Shown: positions 1 through 20,356 of the stretch, in pieces
Position numbering within the stretch: the first letter of the stretch is position 1
Layout: each line of letters starts with the position of its first letter
NCBI GenBank assembly: GCA_002441305.1
Contig: DJVT01000009.1
Span: 409,210-473,209, forward strand
Origin: Candidatus Omnitrophica bacterium UBA6249
Lineage (GTDB): Bacteria; Omnitrophota; Gorgyraeia; Gygaellales; Profunditerraquicolaceae
Reading direction: 5' to 3'
Length of the DNA: 64,000 nucleotides
The notes under the pieces: generated by a model
The model's database searches: none
What the model was told of the DNA's origin: nothing
The model's input: the letters and a program-made list of their open reading frames with translations, nothing else
Made by a program: the position numbers and the translations under genes

Positions 1-446
1 CTAATCGTTAAGTCCACACCCATAGAGTGATCTGTCCAGATTTGAAGCCAAGACTTAAACTGATCTAAGGATAAAGATTTTTTTATTTCTCCTGAGGGCA
101 AATTATTTGTAATCTTTACGCAGTACCACCAAATATGGTAGTTATCAATTTTTTTCTGTGATGAAGAAAATTTAACTAGATTATCTATAATATCGATTAA
201 TTCTTTGACATACTCTGTCGCCTGAGATGATTGTTCAGAAACTCTTTCCAAGTAATCAAGAACATTCCAAAACAAGGCATGCCCATCATCTGAATAAGCT
301 ATTTTTTCGGGGTTAAAGTAATCCTCTTGCTTTAATGGATTAAACCATTTAAGGGACTTCACCCGCGCAAAGAAATAGCGCGCCTGATCGGAATCAGTTT
401 TAATTAAATACAATACTTGTTGTTCTTCGGCATTAAGAGTGCTCAT
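1..446 (-). CDS. Unknown protein, N-terminal fragment only (148 codons, open to window edge); partner of the SIR2-like gene
   Basis: Absent from the ORF track because it has no stop in the window. Hand translation from the ATG at 446-444 (MSTLNAEEQQVLYLIKTDSDQARYFFARVKSLKWFNPL...WTDHSMGVDLTI) stays open to base 1. Its ATG overlaps the SIR2-like stop (ATGA). I recognise no family. Confidence 0.6.
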   Translation of the reverse strand, partial: MSTLNAEEQQVLYLIKTDSDQARYFFARVKSLKWFNPLKQEDYFNPEKIAYSDDGHALFWNVLDYLERVSEQSSQATEYVKELIDIIDNLVKFSSSQKKIDNYHIWWYCVKITNNLPSGEIKKSLSLDQFKSWLQIWTDHSMGVDLTI

Positions 447-1351
447 AAATTCCTATCAATGATTTTATTAAATTCATAAAAACCATCGCCTTCTTTATCT
501 TCAAAAACTTTCCTCCATGACGATAATATCTCCTCGAGTTGTGCATAGCCATTGGCGTTAATTGAATAAGGTATCACCGTCATGCTTATCTGATCAAAAT
601 ACATTTGCTCATATTCATAAAGCTGTTCCTCCTGCTGAAAGAATGGCAGTAAAACATAGAAGTGATTAACTAGCTTTTTTAAAGAGTTACTCCCCTTGCT
701 GTATTTCTGAATCATAAAATCAATTATTTCCATTTCATCTATGCCATAGCCAATGAAAAGAAAGCAATTTTTGTCATCGAAAAATGCCTGTTTTAAGAAA
801 TCTCTAAACGTTCGGTCATTATATCTGGCAAGGTACTCGTCAACGGTCATAACCAAACTATTTTCATCTTCTATAGTGCCGTGAAGATGAATGATATTTT
901 TAGTTTTCAGCCGATACTTGTTAGGGTCTGAATGGATATTCCCGGAATCAAATAATTTTGAAAAATGGAGATCAATGTTTGTTGTGATAAAACTTGCATT
1001 CAATGAAAATAAGTTATTCATCAAATCCGGAAGTTTATTCTTCTTTGCGGGTATTACTTCTAAAGTTTTTTTTAGCTCGGAAAAATATTTATCTTTTAAA
1101 ATTCCTTTCGCAATTGTTATCAATTTTCTCGGAGCGGTTGAATATTTCGTCAGTAAAGTATCTTTAACCCAATAATCAATATCTCCGCTTTCATAACAGG
1201 AATTGACCAGAGAGAACGCCATATCCTTCCACCGATGACAACCCCAAAGCGCAGAAAGGCCAGCACCTACAAAAACTATCAACCTCTCGTTCTCTTGAGC
1301 ATCATATATATGTGGATATTTTTTTAAATCAGGAACAAGCTCAATTCTCAT
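443..1351 (-). CDS. SIR2-like (SIR2_2-type) NAD-binding/NADase domain protein, catalytic domain only
   Basis: 302 aa with motifs LIVFVGAGLS, FITTNIDLHF, IIHLHGT and LFIGYGIDE in the order expected for SIR2_2 defence-type sirtuins. The ATG overlaps the hsdS stop (ATGA at 1348-1351). Confidence 0.75.
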   Translation of the reverse strand: MRIELVPDLKKYPHIYDAQENERLIVFVGAGLSALWGCHRWKDMAFSLVNSCYESGDIDYWVKDTLLTKYSTAPRKLITIAKGILKDKYFSELKKTLEVIPAKKNKLPDLMNNLFSLNASFITTNIDLHFSKLFDSGNIHSDPNKYRLKTKNIIHLHGTIEDENSLVMTVDEYLARYNDRTFRDFLKQAFFDDKNCFLFIGYGIDEMEIIDFMIQKYSKGSNSLKKLVNHFYVLLPFFQQEEQLYEYEQMYFDQISMTVIPYSINANGYAQLEEILSSWRKVFEDKEGDGFYEFNKIIDRNL

Positions 1352-6838: not shown

Positions 6839-7375
6839 CTACGTGAGTACAAAGTCACTGCACTTAATGCGAATCTCTTTAAGCTCCGTCAGTACTGCCG
6901 CCAAATCAAACGATTCACCGCGAAACGTCAATGTCTGCGTTAAAGGATCATACGCCCTATGCTGATTGGTAGGTACGTTTCCCCAGATTGACTTAAAAGG
7001 ATCTACTGCCAAATCGCTGTAGACCGCTGAGGATTGCTTTTTAAACCAATCCTCTATTCGCTCGTCATAGTGTTCAAAATGATTGCGGAATTTGCGATCA
7101 AAAAGAATATTATCCTCAGAGACTTTAAGCAACTCTCGCAATCTTTCTCCGCGTCCCGCATATTTCTCTTTCTGTGGCCATAAAATCTTCGATACGTTTC
7201 CAGCCGCCACGAGAATCGATTGAATTGAACTCCACACTTCAATCTGATCAAAACTTTCCTTGCTCGCCGATAAGCGTTTAGCGGCCAATTCCGCAATCTT
7301 TGATTGCAACACAATCTCGCCTATAAACACCATCTCAGCAAGCGCCTTTTGAGACCCATTATCTACGAAATTCAT
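6839..7375 (-). CDS. Hypothetical 178-aa protein with a possible HEPN-type Rx4H motif
   Basis: The ATG overlaps the abiEii stop (ATGA at 7372-7375). The motif FRNHFEHYDE has R97 and H102 spaced as Rx4H. The sequence looks all-helical. It ends 44 nt before hsdR. Confidence 0.5.
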   Translation of the reverse strand: MNFVDNGSQKALAEMVFIGEIVLQSKIAELAAKRLSASKESFDQIEVWSSIQSILVAAGNVSKILWPQKEKYAGRGERLRELLKVSEDNILFDRKFRNHFEHYDERIEDWFKKQSSAVYSDLAVDPFKSIWGNVPTNQHRAYDPLTQTLTFRGESFDLAAVLTELKEIRIKCSDFVLT

Positions 7376-8397
7376 TGTTTTATCCTGTTAATTTCTCTTT
7401 CAACTTTCTTTAATTTTTCCAGAATACTGTCAAATGACGGCGGATCCTCAAAAAACATTTCCTGCATTTGACGGTAATCTGTTTTTAACTGGCTTTTTTG
7501 ATCTTCCCGAGGTGACAATCTCAAGCCCCCGGGCTTGGCTTCTTCATAATGCGCCCAGTTTGCCTTAAAGAATAATGCCTTATGCTCAGACACATCTTTG
7601 AGCAAGGCTATTTTCTCCAAAGATTTCTTATATATTGGCGTATCTGCCATGGCGAATAAATCATAATAATGCCGTGACATTCGAGGTGGAACATTCTTAC
7701 CTTCCGGATAATTATGAATCATATGCAGGATTGTCGCCTTTTCCCAAAAGGTTCGCTCCGCGGCCAATACACGCACCGGCGCGCCTTCAATGCTAACATC
7801 ACCGGAAACATTGGCAACGTATGGAGCAACAGTCATATTTTCAACCGGCCAATGGTCAGCTCTCGATCCAAATTCTATTTTGACGGCGGACTTAACATAA
7901 CTTTCCACGCTACTGGTCAAAGAATGCGGAAAGGTAAATAAAACCGTCTGCCCTAAAGCGTCTTTGGGGTCTAGTTCAAGTCCCCATGATTTTTTGTCTG
8001 TAAGAACCTTCGCAATGCTCTTTTGTAATTCAGGAATAAGCGTGCTGGCAATTTTTTCTTTACATGCAAGCTGAAGCCGTTCAAGCCTTCGCTGATTTTC
8101 TTTATTGCTTTCATCTTTGTCAGGTTCGATAGAGGCGTCGCTCGATAAAAAAGTCCTCTCAATTGACACATCGACATCTTCGGAAAAACGTCTGATGACG
8201 TCGTAACATTTTGAAAGCGATGTGCCGCCTTTGAATGTTAAATGCTCTCCTGATTTCGGTAATGAAAAAAGGATTTTAAGTATCCAGCATACCCAAAAAT
8301 CCTTCTCAATTAACTGCGGCATTACGTTCAAGTCTGCCGCGGCTACCTCAAAGTAAGCGCGTTTATCTTTATCACTTAATTGTATAAATTTATCCAT
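7372..8397 (-). CDS. abiEii: AbiEii/AbiGii-family nucleotidyltransferase toxin (DUF1814)
   Basis: 341 aa with the FKGGTSLSKCY and RFSEDVDV motifs characteristic of the family. Starts 7 nt after abiEi. Confidence 0.85.
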   Translation of the reverse strand: MDKFIQLSDKDKRAYFEVAAADLNVMPQLIEKDFWVCWILKILFSLPKSGEHLTFKGGTSLSKCYDVIRRFSEDVDVSIERTFLSSDASIEPDKDESNKENQRRLERLQLACKEKIASTLIPELQKSIAKVLTDKKSWGLELDPKDALGQTVLFTFPHSLTSSVESYVKSAVKIEFGSRADHWPVENMTVAPYVANVSGDVSIEGAPVRVLAAERTFWEKATILHMIHNYPEGKNVPPRMSRHYYDLFAMADTPIYKKSLEKIALLKDVSEHKALFFKANWAHYEEAKPGGLRLSPREDQKSQLKTDYRQMQEMFFEDPPSFDSILEKLKKVEREINRIKQ

Positions 8398-8404
8398 AAC
8401 CCTC

Positions 8405-9001
8405 TCATTTTTGTAATTGTCTGAATATGTTGCCTATCCACACCGGCGCAAACCGCAAATCTTTCATAAGTTGTTGTTTATCCTCAGAAGATAACCTTTT
8501 ATCAAGCATGTCTATAATATGGTCATCCACATGATCCTGCCCTAAATACCGCAGAGCCTGAATAACCAATCCACTTATACGTCCGGCCGTAGCCATATTT
8601 TTAGGGGTTGTTCTTTTTAACACAATCTGCTGTTTATTGATCTGCACCATGCGATTAGGGCCGTCTGTCAGAAAAACAATCTTTGCCGGAACCTGCTCCG
8701 TTAATCCCAAGAGGTTAGCGGCGTACGCTCCGGAAGGCTGAATCTTCAAGCTATCCCTTCCGGCCAAAGCTTGAGCTATCCGCTCATAGTTTGGCGGAAG
8801 GTCTCCCAGCGTTGGGTGCTTATCCGGGTAATCGTATAGGCCACGAGCTAAACGACGAATCTCCCCTGACTCTGCCAAACGCTCCAACGCTTTTGCCACA
8901 GTCTTAGGATGGCCTAAATCGAGAAAATGACTTTTCGTAAAGACAAACCCTCGATTCTTACCATATATCCGCTTTTTTATCTTATCTACTATAGTTTGCA
9001 T
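8405..9001 (-). CDS. abiEi: AbiEi-type antitoxin/transcriptional regulator (wHTH N-terminus)
   Basis: The track ORF starts at TTG 9028. The ATG at 9001 has an AGGAG 7 nt upstream. The N-terminal AKALERLAESGEIRRLARGLY resembles the AbiEi N-terminal domain, and the gene sits directly upstream of abiEii. Confidence 0.75.
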   Translation of the reverse strand: MQTIVDKIKKRIYGKNRGFVFTKSHFLDLGHPKTVAKALERLAESGEIRRLARGLYDYPDKHPTLGDLPPNYERIAQALAGRDSLKIQPSGAYAANLLGLTEQVPAKIVFLTDGPNRMVQINKQQIVLKRTTPKNMATAGRISGLVIQALRYLGQDHVDDHIIDMLDKRLSSEDKQQLMKDLRFAPVWIGNIFRQLQK

Positions 9002-9020: not shown

Positions 9021-9059
9021 TGTCGCAAATAATATATACTTTTTGCGACATCTTGTCAA
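9021..9059 (-). promoter_or_regulatory. Sigma70-type promoter of the abiE/defence string with an overlapping inverted-repeat operator
   Basis: On the minus strand: TTGACA (9059-9054), 17 nt, TATATT (9036-9031). The inverted repeat TGTCGCAAA (9050-9042) / TTTGCGACA (9029-21) has 9-bp arms and a 12-nt spacer and brackets the -10. Confidence 0.6.
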
Positions 9060-9091: not shown

Positions 9092-9193
9092 ATAATGTTC
9101 ACTAATTAGTGAACATTATCAAAAAGTGAACATTAAATGGCTATAGAAATATAATGTCCCCTGGCGAGTGGACATTTATCACCAGTGGACATT
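9092..9193. repeat. Two composite palindromic boxes of the form AATGTyCnC-N6-GTGrACATT-N8-GTGrACATT
   Basis: Box1 is at 9094-9117, inside a perfect 28-bp palindrome at 9092-9119, with an extra half-site at 9126-9134. Box2 is at 9153-9176 with an extra half-site at 9185-9193. Each extra half-site starts 17 nt after the start of the right arm. Confidence 0.85.
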
Positions 9194-9214
9194 TAAGCAG
9201 GGCTTTACACCCCT

Positions 9215-9529
9215 TTACATTTCTGACGGATTGGGCGTTTTAAATACCAAAAATGTAGCGTTATCACTGCCGGTATTCTTGATGATCATCGGCGTTTGAA
9301 AGGCGACCGGTAATAGATCGCCTTCCTTAACCTGATTATCTGCACCGTCAAGATTAACCGATAAATTGCCTCTTACAACCAGAAGATGAACATTTGAATT
9401 AGCATTATGCTGAGGAACACTCTGCCCGGGCTTTAACGCTATCTGCATTACAAGAAGATGTTTCTCATCAACAACCTTGCGATTGCCCATCTTGTCGTCA
9501 TTATACGGAATATTTTCTAAAACATTCAT
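9215..9529 (-). CDS. Cupin domain protein
   Basis: 104 aa with a small beta-barrel-type sequence (PGQSVPQHNANSNVHLLVVRGNL...). Last gene of the hcp module. Confidence 0.65.
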   Translation of the reverse strand: MNVLENIPYNDDKMGNRKVVDEKHLLVMQIALKPGQSVPQHNANSNVHLLVVRGNLSVNLDGADNQVKEGDLLPVAFQTPMIIKNTGSDNATFLVFKTPNPSEM

Positions 9530-9540
9530 AAGTTAACCTC

Positions 9541-11172
9541 CTAACGGGCTTCCATCATAGCCTTAACATCATCCTCAACAGTGCTTATCGGCTTGATGTC
9601 AAACTTTTCGATCAGAACCTTTGCAACATTCGGGGATATAAACGCAGGCAAAGTAGGCCCTAAACGAATGCCTTTTACTCCAAGGTGTAACAAAGCTAAT
9701 AGAACAGCAACAGCTTTCTGTTCATACCAAGCAATGTCAAATGAGATCGGAAGCTCATTGATATCATTAAGCCCGAAAACTTCCTTCAGTTTAAGGGCAA
9801 TAACAGCGAGCGAATAAGAATCATTACACTGACCAGCGTCTAAAACTCGAGGAATTCCATTGATGTCGCCCAGAGGCAATTTGTTATAACGGTATTTTGC
9901 ACAGCCCGCAGTTAAAATAACCGTATCTTTAGGCAGAGCTTCTGCAACCTCCGTAAAATAGCTTCTCGGCTTTTGACGGCCGTCACATCCAGCCATAACA
10001 ATAAACCGTTTTATTGCCCCTGATTTAACAGCTTCGACAACTTTATCTGCCAAAGCAAGAACCTGATTATGAGCGAATCCGCCGACTATCTCACCGGTTT
10101 CAATTTCCTTAGGCGGTTGACATTTCTTTGCCAGCTCAATAATCCCGCTGAAATCTTTTTTACCACCTTCGCTTCGGTCAGGTACATGCTTAACACCCGG
10201 ATAACCAGCCATACCGGTAGTAAATATTCTGTCTTTATAGGAATCCTTTACCGGAATGATACAGTTTGTCGTCATCAGGATGGGGCCATTGAAAGTTTCA
10301 AAATCCTGATTCTGATGCCACCATGAACCGCCGTAATTACCCACGAAATGATCGTATTTCTTGAAAGCAGGGTAATAATTTGCCGGAAGCATTTCACTGT
10401 GGGTATATACATCAACACCTGTTCCTTCGGTTTGTTTCAGCAATTCTTCCATATCCTTCAAATCATGACCTGAAATGAGAATACCGGGATTATTCCTGAC
10501 TCCAAGATTTACTTTTGTTATTTCAGGATTGCCATAGCTCTGAGTATTAGCTTTGTCCAGAACAGCCATAGCCTTTACTGCGTTTTCACCAGCTTCAAGC
10601 ACGAGTCCTGTCAACTCATCAGCGGATGAATTATTAGCGATAGCCGCAAGTCCTTTATACATAAAGCTAAAAATAGATTCATCATACTGACCCAAAACAG
10701 AAGCATGATCCGTATAGGCGGCTATTCCTTTTAACCCGTACAAAAGCAATGACTTCAATGATCGGATATCTTCGTTATCACTGTAGGAAAGAGGGCTTAC
10801 CTCTAACGACTTCTTGATAAAATCTTCTTTTGTATCTGCCGACCATACTGCCGAGTCATGCAAGCCGTCTTCTGAAATCTGCACCTTGCCTTTAACTTCA
10901 TCACGCAACACAAGAGCCTTCTTAATAAGATCTGCGATCCTGTCCTCATCAAAGTTTGCGTTAGTAATCGTTGAAAAAAGAGCCTGACAGGTAAATACGC
11001 CGTATTTTTTATCCAGAGAATCCGCTTTCTCCGCATAGATAGAAAGCCCTTGTAAAGCATAAACCAATAGATCCATTAAATCTGAGGATCTTTCATCCTT
11101 ACCGCAAACACCCTTAATCGTACAGCCGGTATTTTTTACGGTTTCCTGACACTGAAAACAAAACATTCCCAT
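9541..11172 (-). CDS. hcp: Hybrid cluster protein / hydroxylamine reductase
   Basis: 543 aa. The N-terminal [23 protein letters not shown] cysteine motif and the overall length are typical of Hcp. Confidence 0.95.
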
Positions 11173-11198
11173 AGTTTCCTCCTTCTTTTAGAAAACTT

Positions 11199-11615
11199 TT
11201 ATGTTTTCTTTTTGAGTTTCTGTATTAATTTGCCAATGGTCAATTTTTCAAATTCTTTACCAACCATATTTTCTATCCGTTTAATTTCTTCCCTTAAAAC
11301 ACAGGTCTTTCGATCAGGGCAAATTTTCTGCCTGAACATGCAGTCCGATAATTCAAAATCACCCTGAAAAACTTTTATCAAATCCATTATGCGTATTTTT
11401 GCCGGACTCTTGATTATTCGGACACCGCCGGATACGCCTTCTTTTGACTCCACAAATCCAGCCTGTATTAACTTCTGCAAAATAGCTCGCAGGAAATGGT
11501 AAGGAATATTTAAAGTTTCGGATATGTTCTTAGCTGACAAAAAATTATCTTTCTCTTTTGCCAAAAGAATCAATGCCCGAACCGCATAATCTGTATCTTT
11601 AGTTAAAATCTTCAT
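11199..11615 (-). CDS. Rrf2-family transcriptional regulator (three-Cys, NsrR/IscR-like)
   Basis: The track start 11636 is GTG. The ATG at 11615 has an AAGGA upstream. Rrf2 N-terminal wHTH (TKDTDYAVRALILLA) and a C-x7-C-x5-C cluster (SDCMFRQKICPDRKTC). Confidence 0.85.
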   Translation of the reverse strand: MKILTKDTDYAVRALILLAKEKDNFLSAKNISETLNIPYHFLRAILQKLIQAGFVESKEGVSGGVRIIKSPAKIRIMDLIKVFQGDFELSDCMFRQKICPDRKTCVLREEIKRIENMVGKEFEKLTIGKLIQKLKKKT

Positions 11616-11637
11616 AGCAATCCTTTGAATTGCCACT

Positions 11638-11666
11638 ATTTTAGTAGAAGTTTAATGTTTTGTCAA
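11638..11666 (-). promoter_or_regulatory. Sigma70-type promoter of rrf2-hcp-cupin
   Basis: On the minus strand: TTGACA (11666-11661), 17 nt, TAAAAT (11643-11638), about 22 nt upstream of the rrf2 ATG. Confidence 0.6.
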
Positions 11667-11696
11667 TGTATTTATTTAAGCTGACTTGAAGGCTCT

Positions 11697-11720
11697 AATG
11701 TTCGCTACTCAGTGGACATT
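11697..11720. repeat. Third copy of the AATGTyCnC-N6-GTGrACATT box
   Basis: AATGTTCGC-tactca-GTGGACATT has the same 9-6-9 architecture as the boxes at 9094 and 9153. It lies upstream of the -35 of the rrf2-hcp promoter. Confidence 0.8.
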
Positions 11721-11783
11721 TATTTGTGGTAAAAGGTATGCAAGATTTGCGGCGTGGGTGTTCTATAACATAGAACAGTTGTT

Positions 11784-12263
11784 CTACAGTCTAGTACGCT
11801 TAGGAATCTTGTCTGTTTTGAAGTGTTTATCTATCCAGCCGTTTTTGACCTTATCCCGGCTATCGAAGTGCTTAACATAGGGCTTTATATCCAGAAGCGG
11901 CGTACCGTCTAAAATATCGACTTCCGTAAAAGTGATGATGTTCCCTTTGACGCTCTTTAGTTTCACGATCGAAAATCCGATATGATTCGGCCGGTGCGGA
12001 CTGCGTATGGCAAATATCCCATGTTCGGCATCTTCCAGAAAAGGTTTGCCGGTTAACTTCTCCTCTTTTGAGCGGTTGAAATGATAAATCAGGATAACAT
12101 GCGAAAACCCCTCAACGTCTCTTAATCCCGCTTTATATTCAGGAAATATTCTGGCGGTGCCGGTAACTCCCCTTTTAAACTTCCCCTGAATAGGCATGCC
12201 TTTGGGTTCTTTGTACGGCGTATTAATAACACCTATGGGTTTTATTGTAATAGGCTTCTTCAT
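11784..12263 (-). CDS. trmO: TrmO/TsaA-like (YaeB family) SAM-dependent methyltransferase
   Basis: 159 aa. The N-terminal IKPIGVINTPYKEPKGMPIQG and later HRPNHIG motifs are typical of the family. Confidence 0.65.
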   Translation of the reverse strand: MKKPITIKPIGVINTPYKEPKGMPIQGKFKRGVTGTARIFPEYKAGLRDVEGFSHVILIYHFNRSKEEKLTGKPFLEDAEHGIFAIRSPHRPNHIGFSIVKLKSVKGNIITFTEVDILDGTPLLDIKPYVKHFDSRDKVKNGWIDKHFKTDKIPKRTRL

Positions 12264-19174: not shown

Positions 19175-20356
19175 TCATTTAACTGCCGCCCCGAAAATCA
19201 TACCGCTGATAGTCGCCATAACGACAACAAGACCGACATAAACAACTGTTTTCTTGGTTCCTATAACCCCACGGATCACGAGCATGTTTGGCAGGCTTAA
19301 TGCCGGGCCCGCAAGTAATAAAGCAAGCGCCGGACCTTTTCCCATCCCCGCTCCTATCAAACCCTGCAATATCGGCACTTCAGTTAAGGTTGCAAAGTAC
19401 ATAAACGCCCCAACTATAGCCGCAAAAATATTTGATAACAGGGAATTGCCTCCGACTGCTTTTGCGATTATGCATGACGGAATCAGCCCTTCATGATCCG
19501 GTCTTCCCAACAACAATCCGGCGATAAGAACACCTGCCAACAAAAGGGGCATGATTTGCTTGGTAAATGTCCACGAACTTTTAGTCCAATCCTTGATTTC
19601 ATCCTTCCTAAACCATTTAAGAAGCATAACTCCTATCATGACAAGAAATCCGGAAGCCAGATACCATTTTGCTGCAAATACAGATGCCCATATCCCTGAA
19701 GAACCTGGGTCTTGTGGTCTTGCCCAGTTCGCAAAGACTAAGAAGCCGATCATAGACGCAAAATAAAGACCATTTTGAAAAAGAGGCCGCTCCTCTTTTA
19801 TTTCTCCGGCAAACAGTTCATCCCCCGTTTTCCGCTCTCTTTCTTCTCTTAAAAATATAAGATGCATCAGCAAGCCTATGACAACACTGAATAATATAGC
19901 GCCGACAGCCCTTGCTGCTCCTAATTGCCAGCCAAGAATACGGGCGGTCATGATAATTGCCAATACATTGATCGCCGGGCCGGAATAAAGAAAAGCTATA
20001 GCAGGCCCTAGACCAGCGCCTCTCTTATATATACCCGAAAATAACGGTAGGACCGTGCACGAGCATACCGCAAGAATCGTCCCGGAAACAGAAGCAACGC
20101 TGTAAGCGAGAATCTTATTTGCCTTTGACCCGAAATATTTGATGACCGATGCCTGGCTAACAAAGACAGATATCGCTCCGGCAATAAAAAAAGCAGGTAT
20201 AAGACAAAGAAAAACATGTTCCCTCGCATACCACCGCACTAAAGCTAATGATTCAAAAACAGGATTTCTGAGAGGCAACAATTCAACCGGCAGGTAAAAA
20301 CATGCTAAAAACGCTGCCAGCATCAGCAAAAACTTTTTTGATTCCTTCATCTTCAT
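19175..20356 (-). CDS. UPF0718/ArsP-like permease (second copy)
   Basis: 393 aa polytopic protein with an ILAVCSCTVLPLF motif. Confidence 0.7.
   Translation of the reverse strand: MKMKESKKFLLMLAAFLACFYLPVELLPLRNPVFESLALVRWYAREHVFLCLIPAFFIAGAISVFVSQASVIKYFGSKANKILAYSVASVSGTILAVCSCTVLPLFSGIYKRGAGLGPAIAFLYSGPAINVLAIIMTARILGWQLGAARAVGAILFSVVIGLLMHLIFLREERERKTGDELFAGEIKEERPLFQNGLYFASMIGFLVFANWARPQDPGSSGIWASVFAAKWYLASGFLVMIGVMLLKWFRKDEIKDWTKSSWTFTKQIMPLLLAGVLIAGLLLGRPDHEGLIPSCIIAKAVGGNSLLSNIFAAIVGAFMYFATLTEVPILQGLIGAGMGKGPALALLLAGPALSLPNMLVIRGVIGTKKTVVYVGLVVVMATISGMIFGAAVK

Follow-up and report, generated by a model that had tools for sequence, protein, structure and literature searches.

We analysed a 64,000-nucleotide stretch of contig DJVT01000009.1, from Candidatus Omnitrophica bacterium UBA6249, hereafter called the window. 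Our subject is a short palindromic box, present in three copies, that lies either side of an rrf2-hcp-cupin module. All genes in this region are on the minus strand. They are ordered hemerythrin, cupin, DsrE, TrmO-like (11784-12263), rrf2 (11199-11615), hcp (9541-11172), cupin (9215-9529), abiEi (8405-9001) and abiEii (7372-8397). Box3 is located between the TrmO-like gene and rrf2, while Box2, and then Box1, separate the second cupin gene from abiEi. A type I restriction-modification (R-M) system and a SIR2/Dsr1-like gene follow abiEii; together, these genes make up a defence island (Pfam, PADLOC). The same resources identify abiEi, which encodes a DUF6088 protein, and abiEii. This pair (7372-9001) is a type IV toxin-antitoxin (TA) module. 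Two strong sigma-70-like promoters are predicted, on the minus strand, for rrf2 (TTGACA-17-TAAAAT, with the -35 at 11661-11666, the -10 at 11638-11643 and a scan score of 11/12) and for abiEi (TTGACA-17-TATATT, with the -35 at 9054-9059 and the -10 at 9031-9036). Identical contigs were found in several metagenomes.

Direct reading of the sequence places Box1 at 9094-9117 (AATGTTCAC-TAATTA-GTGAACATT), enclosed by a perfect 28-bp palindrome (9092-9119). Box2 is at 9153-9176 (AATGTCCCC-TGGCGA-GTGGACATT) and Box3 is at 11697-11720 (AATGTTCGC-TACTCA-GTGGACATT). Boxes 1 and 2 are each accompanied by an extra half-site, GTGAACATT (9126-9134) and GTGGACATT (9185-9193) respectively, that starts 17 nt past the start of the right arm. 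This creates two composite units, 59 bp apart. All of these features are where a previous sequence-only reading of this DNA had placed them. That reading also put Box3 about 75 nt upstream of the rrf2 start site; measured from the predicted promoter, the Box3 centre is at approximately -77. The Box1 and Box2 centres are at approximately -81.5 and -140.5 relative to the predicted abiEi start. Read on the minus strand, the unit containing Box1 (the A unit, 9094-9134) is AATGTTCAC (9126-9134), N8, then AATGTTCAC-TAATTA-GTGAACATT, and has three TTCAC-type half-sites. The equivalent B unit (9153-9193) is AATGTCCAC (9185-9193), N8, then AATGTCCAC-TCGCCA-GGGGACATT (Box2), and has three TCCAC-type half-sites. 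Box3, in the same orientation, is AATGTCCAC-TGAGTA-GCGAACATT, and is both lone and degenerate. A similar lone box, AATGTCCAC-TGAATA-GTGGATATT, occurs in another locus, L019 (loci are identified by L numbers throughout). The half-site GTGRACATT is found 7 times in the window. The expectation is 0.53, and 7 copies were reached by 0 of 100 shuffles. Six of the seven fall in the two intergenic regions carrying boxes, and the seventh is a solitary half-site within a permease coding region (19566-19574). Elsewhere in the 64-kb window, there is no further good match to the 24-bp full box.

We scanned one genome per species for the motif AATGTYCAC-N6-GTGRACATT. This identified at least 120 loci. Among the matches listed, 64 extend to the 10-4-10 arrangement AATGTYCACT-N4-AGTGRACATT, where 1 in 16 would be expected by chance. 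The listed matches derive mostly from Omnitrophota, or metagenome-assembled genomes (MAGs) labelled Planctomycetia; Elusimicrobia, Deferrimicrobium, Aminicenantes, Syntrophaceae and Patescibacteria are also represented. Open reading frames (ORFs) flanking the motif-found loci were clustered. Most often, the neighbour is a protein of ~220-245 amino acids (~20 loci), followed by a partner of ~263 amino acids (15 loci). Pfam assigns the former to AbiEi_2 (PF09952) and the latter to NTP_transf_8 (PF12281), a nucleotidyltransferase. In NCBI annotation, the AbiEi_2 neighbour is a type IV TA AbiEi family antitoxin. PADLOC has no model for AbiEi_2/NTP_transf_8. The promoters of these AbiEi_2 genes have a constant order. 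A TTGACA -35 element is followed by half-site 1, in the spacer, and then by a TATAT -10 element that runs into half-site 2. After a 6-nt gap come half-site 3, 8-9 nt containing the Shine-Dalgarno sequence, and half-site 4, which is fused to the ATG (GTGAACATTATG). The four half-sites, arranged -> N8-9 -> N6 <- N8-9 <-, extend from the -35/-10 spacer, over the transcription start and the Shine-Dalgarno sequence, to the ATG. Since all of these are covered, bound antitoxin would silence its own AbiEi_2 and NTP_transf_8 operon.

Note that the first AbiEi_2 loci had been found via the motif. For this reason, we made a reverse test, with AbiEi_2 loci from metagenomes chosen by protein homology alone. 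Seventy non-redundant loci had enough upstream sequence. In the 110 nt preceding the ATG, at least two half-sites are present in 69/70, and at least three in 60/70, always in a single fixed register. The background half-site density in those loci is 0.067 per kb. The half-site consensus is A(A/T)TGT(T/C)CA(C/T). Hence, as expected of AbiEi operators, multiple inverted repeats cover the antitoxin promoter and start at cognate AbiEi_2 loci, with four half-sites per promoter. The window copies have three half-sites per unit and are without a cognate antitoxin gene.

The half-sites fall into two specificity classes, A (TTCAC) and B (TCCAC). Among the motif matches, the arms of a box covary; pairs are A/A or B/B and mixed arms almost never occur. 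The classes also follow the clades of the adjacent protein. At nine loci, where the protein begins ..KNIFADKAT.. and contains VSLGMAQGV, the boxes are of class A. At seven loci, where the protein begins MKILLGDKAN.. and contains VGRARAAKV, they are of class B. There is no exception in either group, so operator and antitoxin covary. A third subclass, associated with MNGHTNGTN proteins, has inner half-sites TTCAG..CTGAA. The VSLGMAQGV or VGRARAAKV segment corresponds to the third helix in an N-terminal helix-helix-helix-strand-strand pattern, and is the predicted recognition helix. In the window, the A unit matches half-sites 1-3 of A-class AbiEi_2 promoters and the B unit matches B-class operators. 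Furthermore, the inner pair of half-sites on cognate promoters is often not self-complementary (ATTGTTCAT..GTGAACATT), which favours protein half-sites over a hairpin. The Rrf2 and DUF6088 AbiEi proteins of the window each have a separate conserved operator, over their own -10 elements (see below), and we count this for the same assignment. We conclude that the boxes are probably operator half-sites of the AbiEi_2 (PF09952) family of type IV TA antitoxins and repressors. Our rough probability for this reading is 0.8.

A tblastn search for AbiEi_2 or NTP_transf_8 homologues found none in the 64-kb window. Hence, the window boxes are orphan operators. The A and B units keep half-sites 1-3 and have neither a good -35 or -10 element nor a gene of their own; the type IV TA module abiEi-abiEii is what lies downstream. 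The tandem B+A array recurs in at least eight other genomes, where it precedes unrelated TA or defence modules (L025, L032, L037, L039, L062, L109, L110 and L117). We aligned the window sequence with those from seven of these loci. Every half-site column is invariant and the spacers have diverged. We read such invariance, next to spacers that vary freely, as a phylogenetic footprint in favour of constraint. An identical A unit is also present in L021, L055, L098, L224, L025, L109 and L110. Across the box family, the genes just downstream are the cognate AbiEi_2 gene, DUF6088 abiEi (12 loci), genes for an XRE regulator and a DUF4062/HATPase_c_4 protein (8-9 loci), an AbiEi_4-type antitoxin gene (4 loci) and Fic (2 loci). 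A COG1373-like ATPase, called by eye from its translated N-terminus, is downstream in L025 and L077. In three loci, the distance between the orphan unit and the downstream -35 element is 34, 49 and 71 bp.

In the window, the sequence adjacent to trmO is also conserved. This leader (11726-11797, minus strand, downstream of trmO) contains a degenerate palindrome resembling the DUF6088 AbiEi operator (11726-11753), a GTTCTA-N5-TAGAAC palindrome (11760-11776) and an imperfect second copy of the latter (11780-11797). This order is repeated in related genomes, with GTTCTA-N5-TAGAAC palindromes, the AbiEi-DUF6088-type palindrome, the B unit and then the A unit, downstream of trmO or a class D transpeptidase gene. 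The leader shared with the window precedes B+A units in L025, L109 and L077. In L025 and L109, it passes directly into the outer B half-site. In L021, L055, L098 and L224, an A unit and then abiE come immediately after trmO. The GTTCTA-N5-TAGAAC element is itself operator-like, with conserved arms and a free spacer. It also occurs in L025, L037, L056, L062, L077, L109 and L113, and is confined to box-containing leaders, with 8 matches in the 1.28 Mb of sequence scanned. Intact AbiEi-DUF6088-type palindromes, with no abiEi behind them, are present in the leaders of L025, L109, L077, L090, L095, L113 and L143. The window boxes are part of this conserved multi-operator stretch, which in Omnitrophota-like genomes separates housekeeping-type genes, such as trmO and the class D transpeptidase gene, from interchangeable TA or defence modules.

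In one related MAG (GCA_016783385.1), an orphan A unit separates trmO from abiE (L224, 1346-1386), and another contig encodes an A-class AbiEi_2/NTP_transf_8 module whose operator has all four half-sites (L228, 240-300). Binding in trans is therefore feasible. In this scenario, the orphan units would be bound by AbiEi_2 proteins of classes A and B whose genes lie in other parts of the genome. Once occupied, the units might form a roadblock or an insulator that separates the abiE promoter from the hcp operon. Alternatively, they may provide a cross-regulatory input or serve as titration sites. To us, the comparisons give roughly even odds that the orphan units have a function in trans today. 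More tentatively, and with the odds against it, the orphan B+A arrays may be a functional 'docking leader', at which AbiEi_2, acting in trans, couples unrelated defence or TA cassettes to another TA system. Here, the coupled cassettes would be the abiE-R-M-SIR2 island, behind a nitric oxide (NO)-stress operon. The arrays may double as a short-homology platform for cassette exchange, rrf2-hcp-cupin included.

Several observations count against the assignment of the window boxes to AbiEi_2, or against a role for them in trans. Box3 carries two mismatches in its arms and lacks outer half-sites. No AbiEi_2 gene accompanies the boxes in the window. The orphan units could be relics, since good -35 and -10 elements have been lost, and their variable distance from the downstream -35 argues against a promoter effect of fixed geometry. 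Co-occurrence of orphan unit and AbiEi_2 module in the same MAG holds only if binning is correct. That AbiEi_2 proteins bind the half-sites is something we infer from promoter position, and from box and protein covariation, alone. The AlphaFold model of AbiEi_2 is poor (pLDDT, the model's confidence score, of 53). Finally, a profile search of the PDB gave marginal MarR/Lrs14-type matches alone (E ~0.05), and assignment of AbiEi_2 as a winged helix-turn-helix (wHTH) protein is correspondingly weak.

The alternative that survives best accepts the boxes as AbiEi_2 operators but denies them a present function. They would be relics of AbiEi_2/nucleotidyltransferase modules displaced by others, and would mark junctions merely because modules swap at these promoters. 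We consider this possible, though doubtful. The state of the orphan units, which have no gene and no good promoter elements, agrees with it. So do the litter of gene-less AbiEi-DUF6088 operators in the same leaders (L077, L109, L090, L143 and L113), and the variation in distance to downstream promoters. By inspection only, L033 has an apparent truncated second copy of the AbiEi_2 promoter and 5' end. However, half-sites that are invariant in 8 loci, while spacers and flanking genes have diverged to ~70-85% identity, are unexpected for neutral relics. The tandem B+A architecture also recurs upstream of different modules.

The position of the boxes, either side of hcp, is best described by comparison with related genomes. 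Homology with L077, L025 and L109, detected by blastn, stops at 11724 and resumes at 9195. The intervening minus-strand segment (9196-11723), comprising Box3 and rrf2-hcp-cupin, is specific to the window and sits between the leader and the B unit. Copies of an extended half-site, the 12-mer AGTGGACATTTA, delimit it on both sides (9184-9195 and 11711-11722). Presence or absence of such a block had been predicted from the sequence, and this is what we see; related genomes keep trmO, the box unit and abiE, without rrf2-hcp-cupin, and homology breaks at the boxes. Hence, the boxes 'bracket' hcp because rrf2-hcp-cupin fills a variable slot inside a multi-operator leader. Judged by these alignments, the module is a lineage-specific insertion relative to genomes with an 'empty' leader. 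A target-site duplication was considered and rejected. The hcp segment does have a direct repeat of 12-13 bp on either side, but this is only the extended half-site, which is present three times, and is therefore no evidence for transposition. One related genome without rrf2-hcp, represented by L021, has a homologue of the hcp-associated cupin gene (87% DNA identity) together with a DsrE fragment (465-801 and 911-1171). These lie ~2 kb upstream of trmO, in a region where gene order is heavily shuffled.

The sequence-only reading had also raised the idea that the boxes are core sites for a tyrosine recombinase of the Xer/dif type, with the hcp cassette as a site-specific insertion, similar to a pdif module. 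The 9-6-9 and 11-6-11 architecture fits, and so does the finding that identical flanks may or may not enclose rrf2-hcp-cupin, with breakpoints at the boxes. TA modules are typical pdif cargo, and the B-box spacer is seen in both orientations. Yet Xer sites, built as 11-6-11, pair a XerC arm with a different XerD arm. The arms here are identical inverted copies, and the spacer of Box1, TAATTA, also reads as a palindrome. The junction repeats are extended half-sites, and a crossover inside the spacer is not demonstrable. The same sites are held in fixed register with the -35, -10, Shine-Dalgarno sequence and ATG of AbiEi_2 genes, rrf2-hcp modules elsewhere are box-free, and three active sites within 2.6 kb of chromosome would be unstable. 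A coarse screen for recombinase active-site motifs gave no match in the window and two among the 64 box-family loci screened. We consider the recombination site explanation very improbable. Because the bounding repeat is only a half-site, rrf2-hcp occurs elsewhere without boxes, the arms are identical and the coarse screen found no recombinase in the window, we think that modules were exchanged within a leader containing many short repeated operators, rather than by Xer-type recombination.

Some details of these loci are recorded here. The two recombinase-motif matches, which are the only ones near boxes in the coarse screen, are a tyrosine recombinase adjoining the AbiEi_2 module in L045 (415-1497) and a 560-amino acid serine recombinase adjoining the box leader in L134 (4443-6125). 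The 6-nt B-box spacer (9162-9167 in the window), oriented relative to the downstream module, is tcgcca in the window and L039, and tggcga in L025, L062, L109 and L110. It looks flipped between inverted arms. The 6 nt after the outer half-site of the window (tggtga) resemble the flipped spacer.

The boxes might alternatively act as nucleic acid hairpins, in the form of an intrinsic terminator, an insulator or an element resembling a repetitive extragenic palindrome (REP). The segment 9085-9200 does fold far better than shuffled sequences on both strands (z -5.2 and -4.3), the arms covary, and Box3 was flagged as terminator-like on the plus strand. But the gene strand, which is minus, has no U-tract and no called terminators, and Box3 does not fold on this strand (z -0.2). 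Nor do the extra half-sites have a pairing partner, since they are direct repeats, and the inner pair at cognate promoters is often non-complementary. With three clustered boxes in 64 kb, and nothing relevant in an Rfam search, neither a high copy number nor a hairpin with a U-tract on the transcribed strand is evident. A role as hairpins is very improbable. The REP element was rejected on copy number. By inspection, integron attC sites were rejected too; GTTCACT and AGTGAAC do not match GTTRRRY and RYYYAAC, and each box is a short, self-contained palindrome. Sites for LexA-like, CRP-like and class I activator proteins were discarded, as their half-sites would be oriented and spaced differently. 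Moreover, distances from promoters are unphased (~-77, ~-81.5 and ~-140.5 in the window, and 34, 49 and 71 bp to the -35 element elsewhere).

The adjacent DUF6088 AbiEi antitoxin was another potential ligand for Boxes 1 and 2, which would then be its second, upstream operator. In 12 motif-selected loci, the box is 56-180 bp upstream of the called abiEi ORF start, and it is also present in 3/5 protein-selected contexts. However, this gene has an operator of its own. In the window, it is TGTCGCAAA-N12-TTTGCGACA (9021-9050, minus strand), and overlaps the abiE -10 element. The arrangement, of TTGACA and then TGTCGCAAA-N12-TTTGCGACA over the -10, is common to all homologous DUF6088 abiEi loci. Using a strict pattern, the arms are perfect in 11/18 loci, and there are three compensatory variants (GC, AC and AG). 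The box sequence is unrelated to TGTCGCAAA, and the same boxes are also found ahead of modules of the XRE-DUF4062, Fic, AbiEi_4 and COG1373-like ATPase kinds. Two protein-selected loci, L018 and L023, are box-free. Given the separate -10 palindrome, conserved with compensatory changes, and these two loci without boxes, the boxes are not a conserved operator of DUF6088 AbiEi, and we reject this possibility.

Our remaining comparison concerns Rrf2, which the sequence-only reading had favoured as the protein bound at the boxes. The Rrf2 protein carries a C-x7-C-x5-C cluster motif, hcp is a classic NsrR target, and a palindrome of 24-28 bp is within the range of Rrf2 sites. We fetched four independent orthologous rrf2-hcp loci (L006, L010, L013 and L014), where Rrf2 is 74-88% identical and the neighbourhoods are all different. 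No box was found across 8-12 kb of each locus. Indeed, the rrf2-hcp pairing, in some loci with cupin too, recurs in unrelated contexts without boxes. What the orthologous upstream regions do share is a promoter and a dyad centred on the -10 element, roughly TTAAAcTgCTACTAnAATAGTAgCAGTTTAA. The equivalent in the window is the palindrome AACTTCTACTAAAATAGTGGCAA (11628-11652, minus strand), which overlaps the rrf2-hcp -10. It is conserved in 5 distinct orthologous promoters, and its pattern matches a single locus in the window, reported on both strands. Because position and size are as expected for an Rrf2 repressor site, 11628-11652 is likely to be the true operator through which the Rrf2 (NsrR-like) protein would control the hcp operon. 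Phylogenetic footprinting of the five orthologous promoters, a Box3 centre ~77 nt upstream of the predicted start rather than over the core promoter, and a motif that follows AbiEi_2 genes rather than rrf2, together lead us to reject the boxes as operators with which Rrf2 represses hcp and the neighbouring island, the least credible explanation of all. The broader suggestion, of operators for a dimeric wHTH regulator, fares better. The boxes do appear to serve a repressor family of winged-helix type; it is the choice of Rrf2 as binder that falls. Of the orthologous loci, L010 (6413-8545) and L014 (6413-8548) encode a fusion of Hcp with an HD domain at its N-terminus (710-711 amino acids), and L006 has a ferredoxin-like gene between rrf2 and hcp.

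AbiEi, from S. agalactiae, binds two inverted repeats overlapping PabiEi, and Rv2827c, from M. tuberculosis, binds four tandem repeats overlapping Prv2827c (PMC7319586). Rv1044 is a proposed regulator of genes elsewhere (PMC7319586). Antitoxins of the AbiEi/Rv2827c type have two domains, double as repressors, and leave non-cognate promoters unbound (PMC7319586, PMC3985639). The AbiEi_2 loci are similar in having several inverted repeats over the promoter and start site. They differ in protein family, being AbiEi_2/PF09952 with an NTP_transf_8 partner rather than COG5340 with DUF1814, and in having short half-sites, of 9-10 bp, rather than 23-bp repeats. They also differ in having two or three specificity classes distinguished by one base and, in the window, sites that are orphan and upstream of other modules. 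Palindromes for the type II antitoxin MqsA occur at unrelated promoters outside mqsRA; regulation in trans has been proposed and its relevance is disputed. The likeness is an antitoxin operator motif at promoters of unrelated genes. The motif is another one, however, MqsA is type II, and the sites described here are conserved multi-site orphan arrays before defence or TA modules. Acinetobacter plasmids carry pdif (XerC/XerD) modules, often TA systems, whose sites alternate in orientation and have a XerC arm that differs from the XerD arm. In both cases, short palindromes bound small interchangeable modules, with presence or absence polymorphism at the sites. Unlike pdif, the boxes have identical arms, extra direct half-sites and a role in AbiEi_2 promoters. 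Finally, operators of NsrR/IscR-type Rrf2 proteins are ~23-29-bp palindromes, bound by dimeric wHTH proteins and linked to hcp. The Rrf2-type site of this module, though, is 11628-11652, over the -10, and boxes do not co-occur with rrf2 orthologues.

Two further products of the window were noted. Downstream of abiEii, a 178-amino acid ORF (6839-7375, minus strand) has no match in Pfam or PADLOC. Its homologue in L071 (83% amino acid identity) is ~1.8 kb downstream of a DUF6088 abiEi gene. The SIR2-domain protein (443-1351, minus strand) aligns with the N-terminal portion of the Dsr1 model in PADLOC (E 1.7e-75) and, at 302 amino acids, is far below the length of the 1227-position Dsr1 profile.

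These results correct a plausible, but wrong, assignment of the boxes to an NsrR-hcp regulon, and assign three separate operators within one 3-kb region. They give an operator code, with specificity classes separated by a single base, for the uncharacterised AbiEi_2/NTP_transf_8 antitoxin family. In uncultivated phyla, the operators of such antitoxins persist as conserved orphan arrays before other defence and TA modules. If the orphans are not bound in trans, the arrays mark a recurrent hotspot for module exchange. If they are so bound, TA systems would form part of hierarchical regulatory networks that control defence islands.

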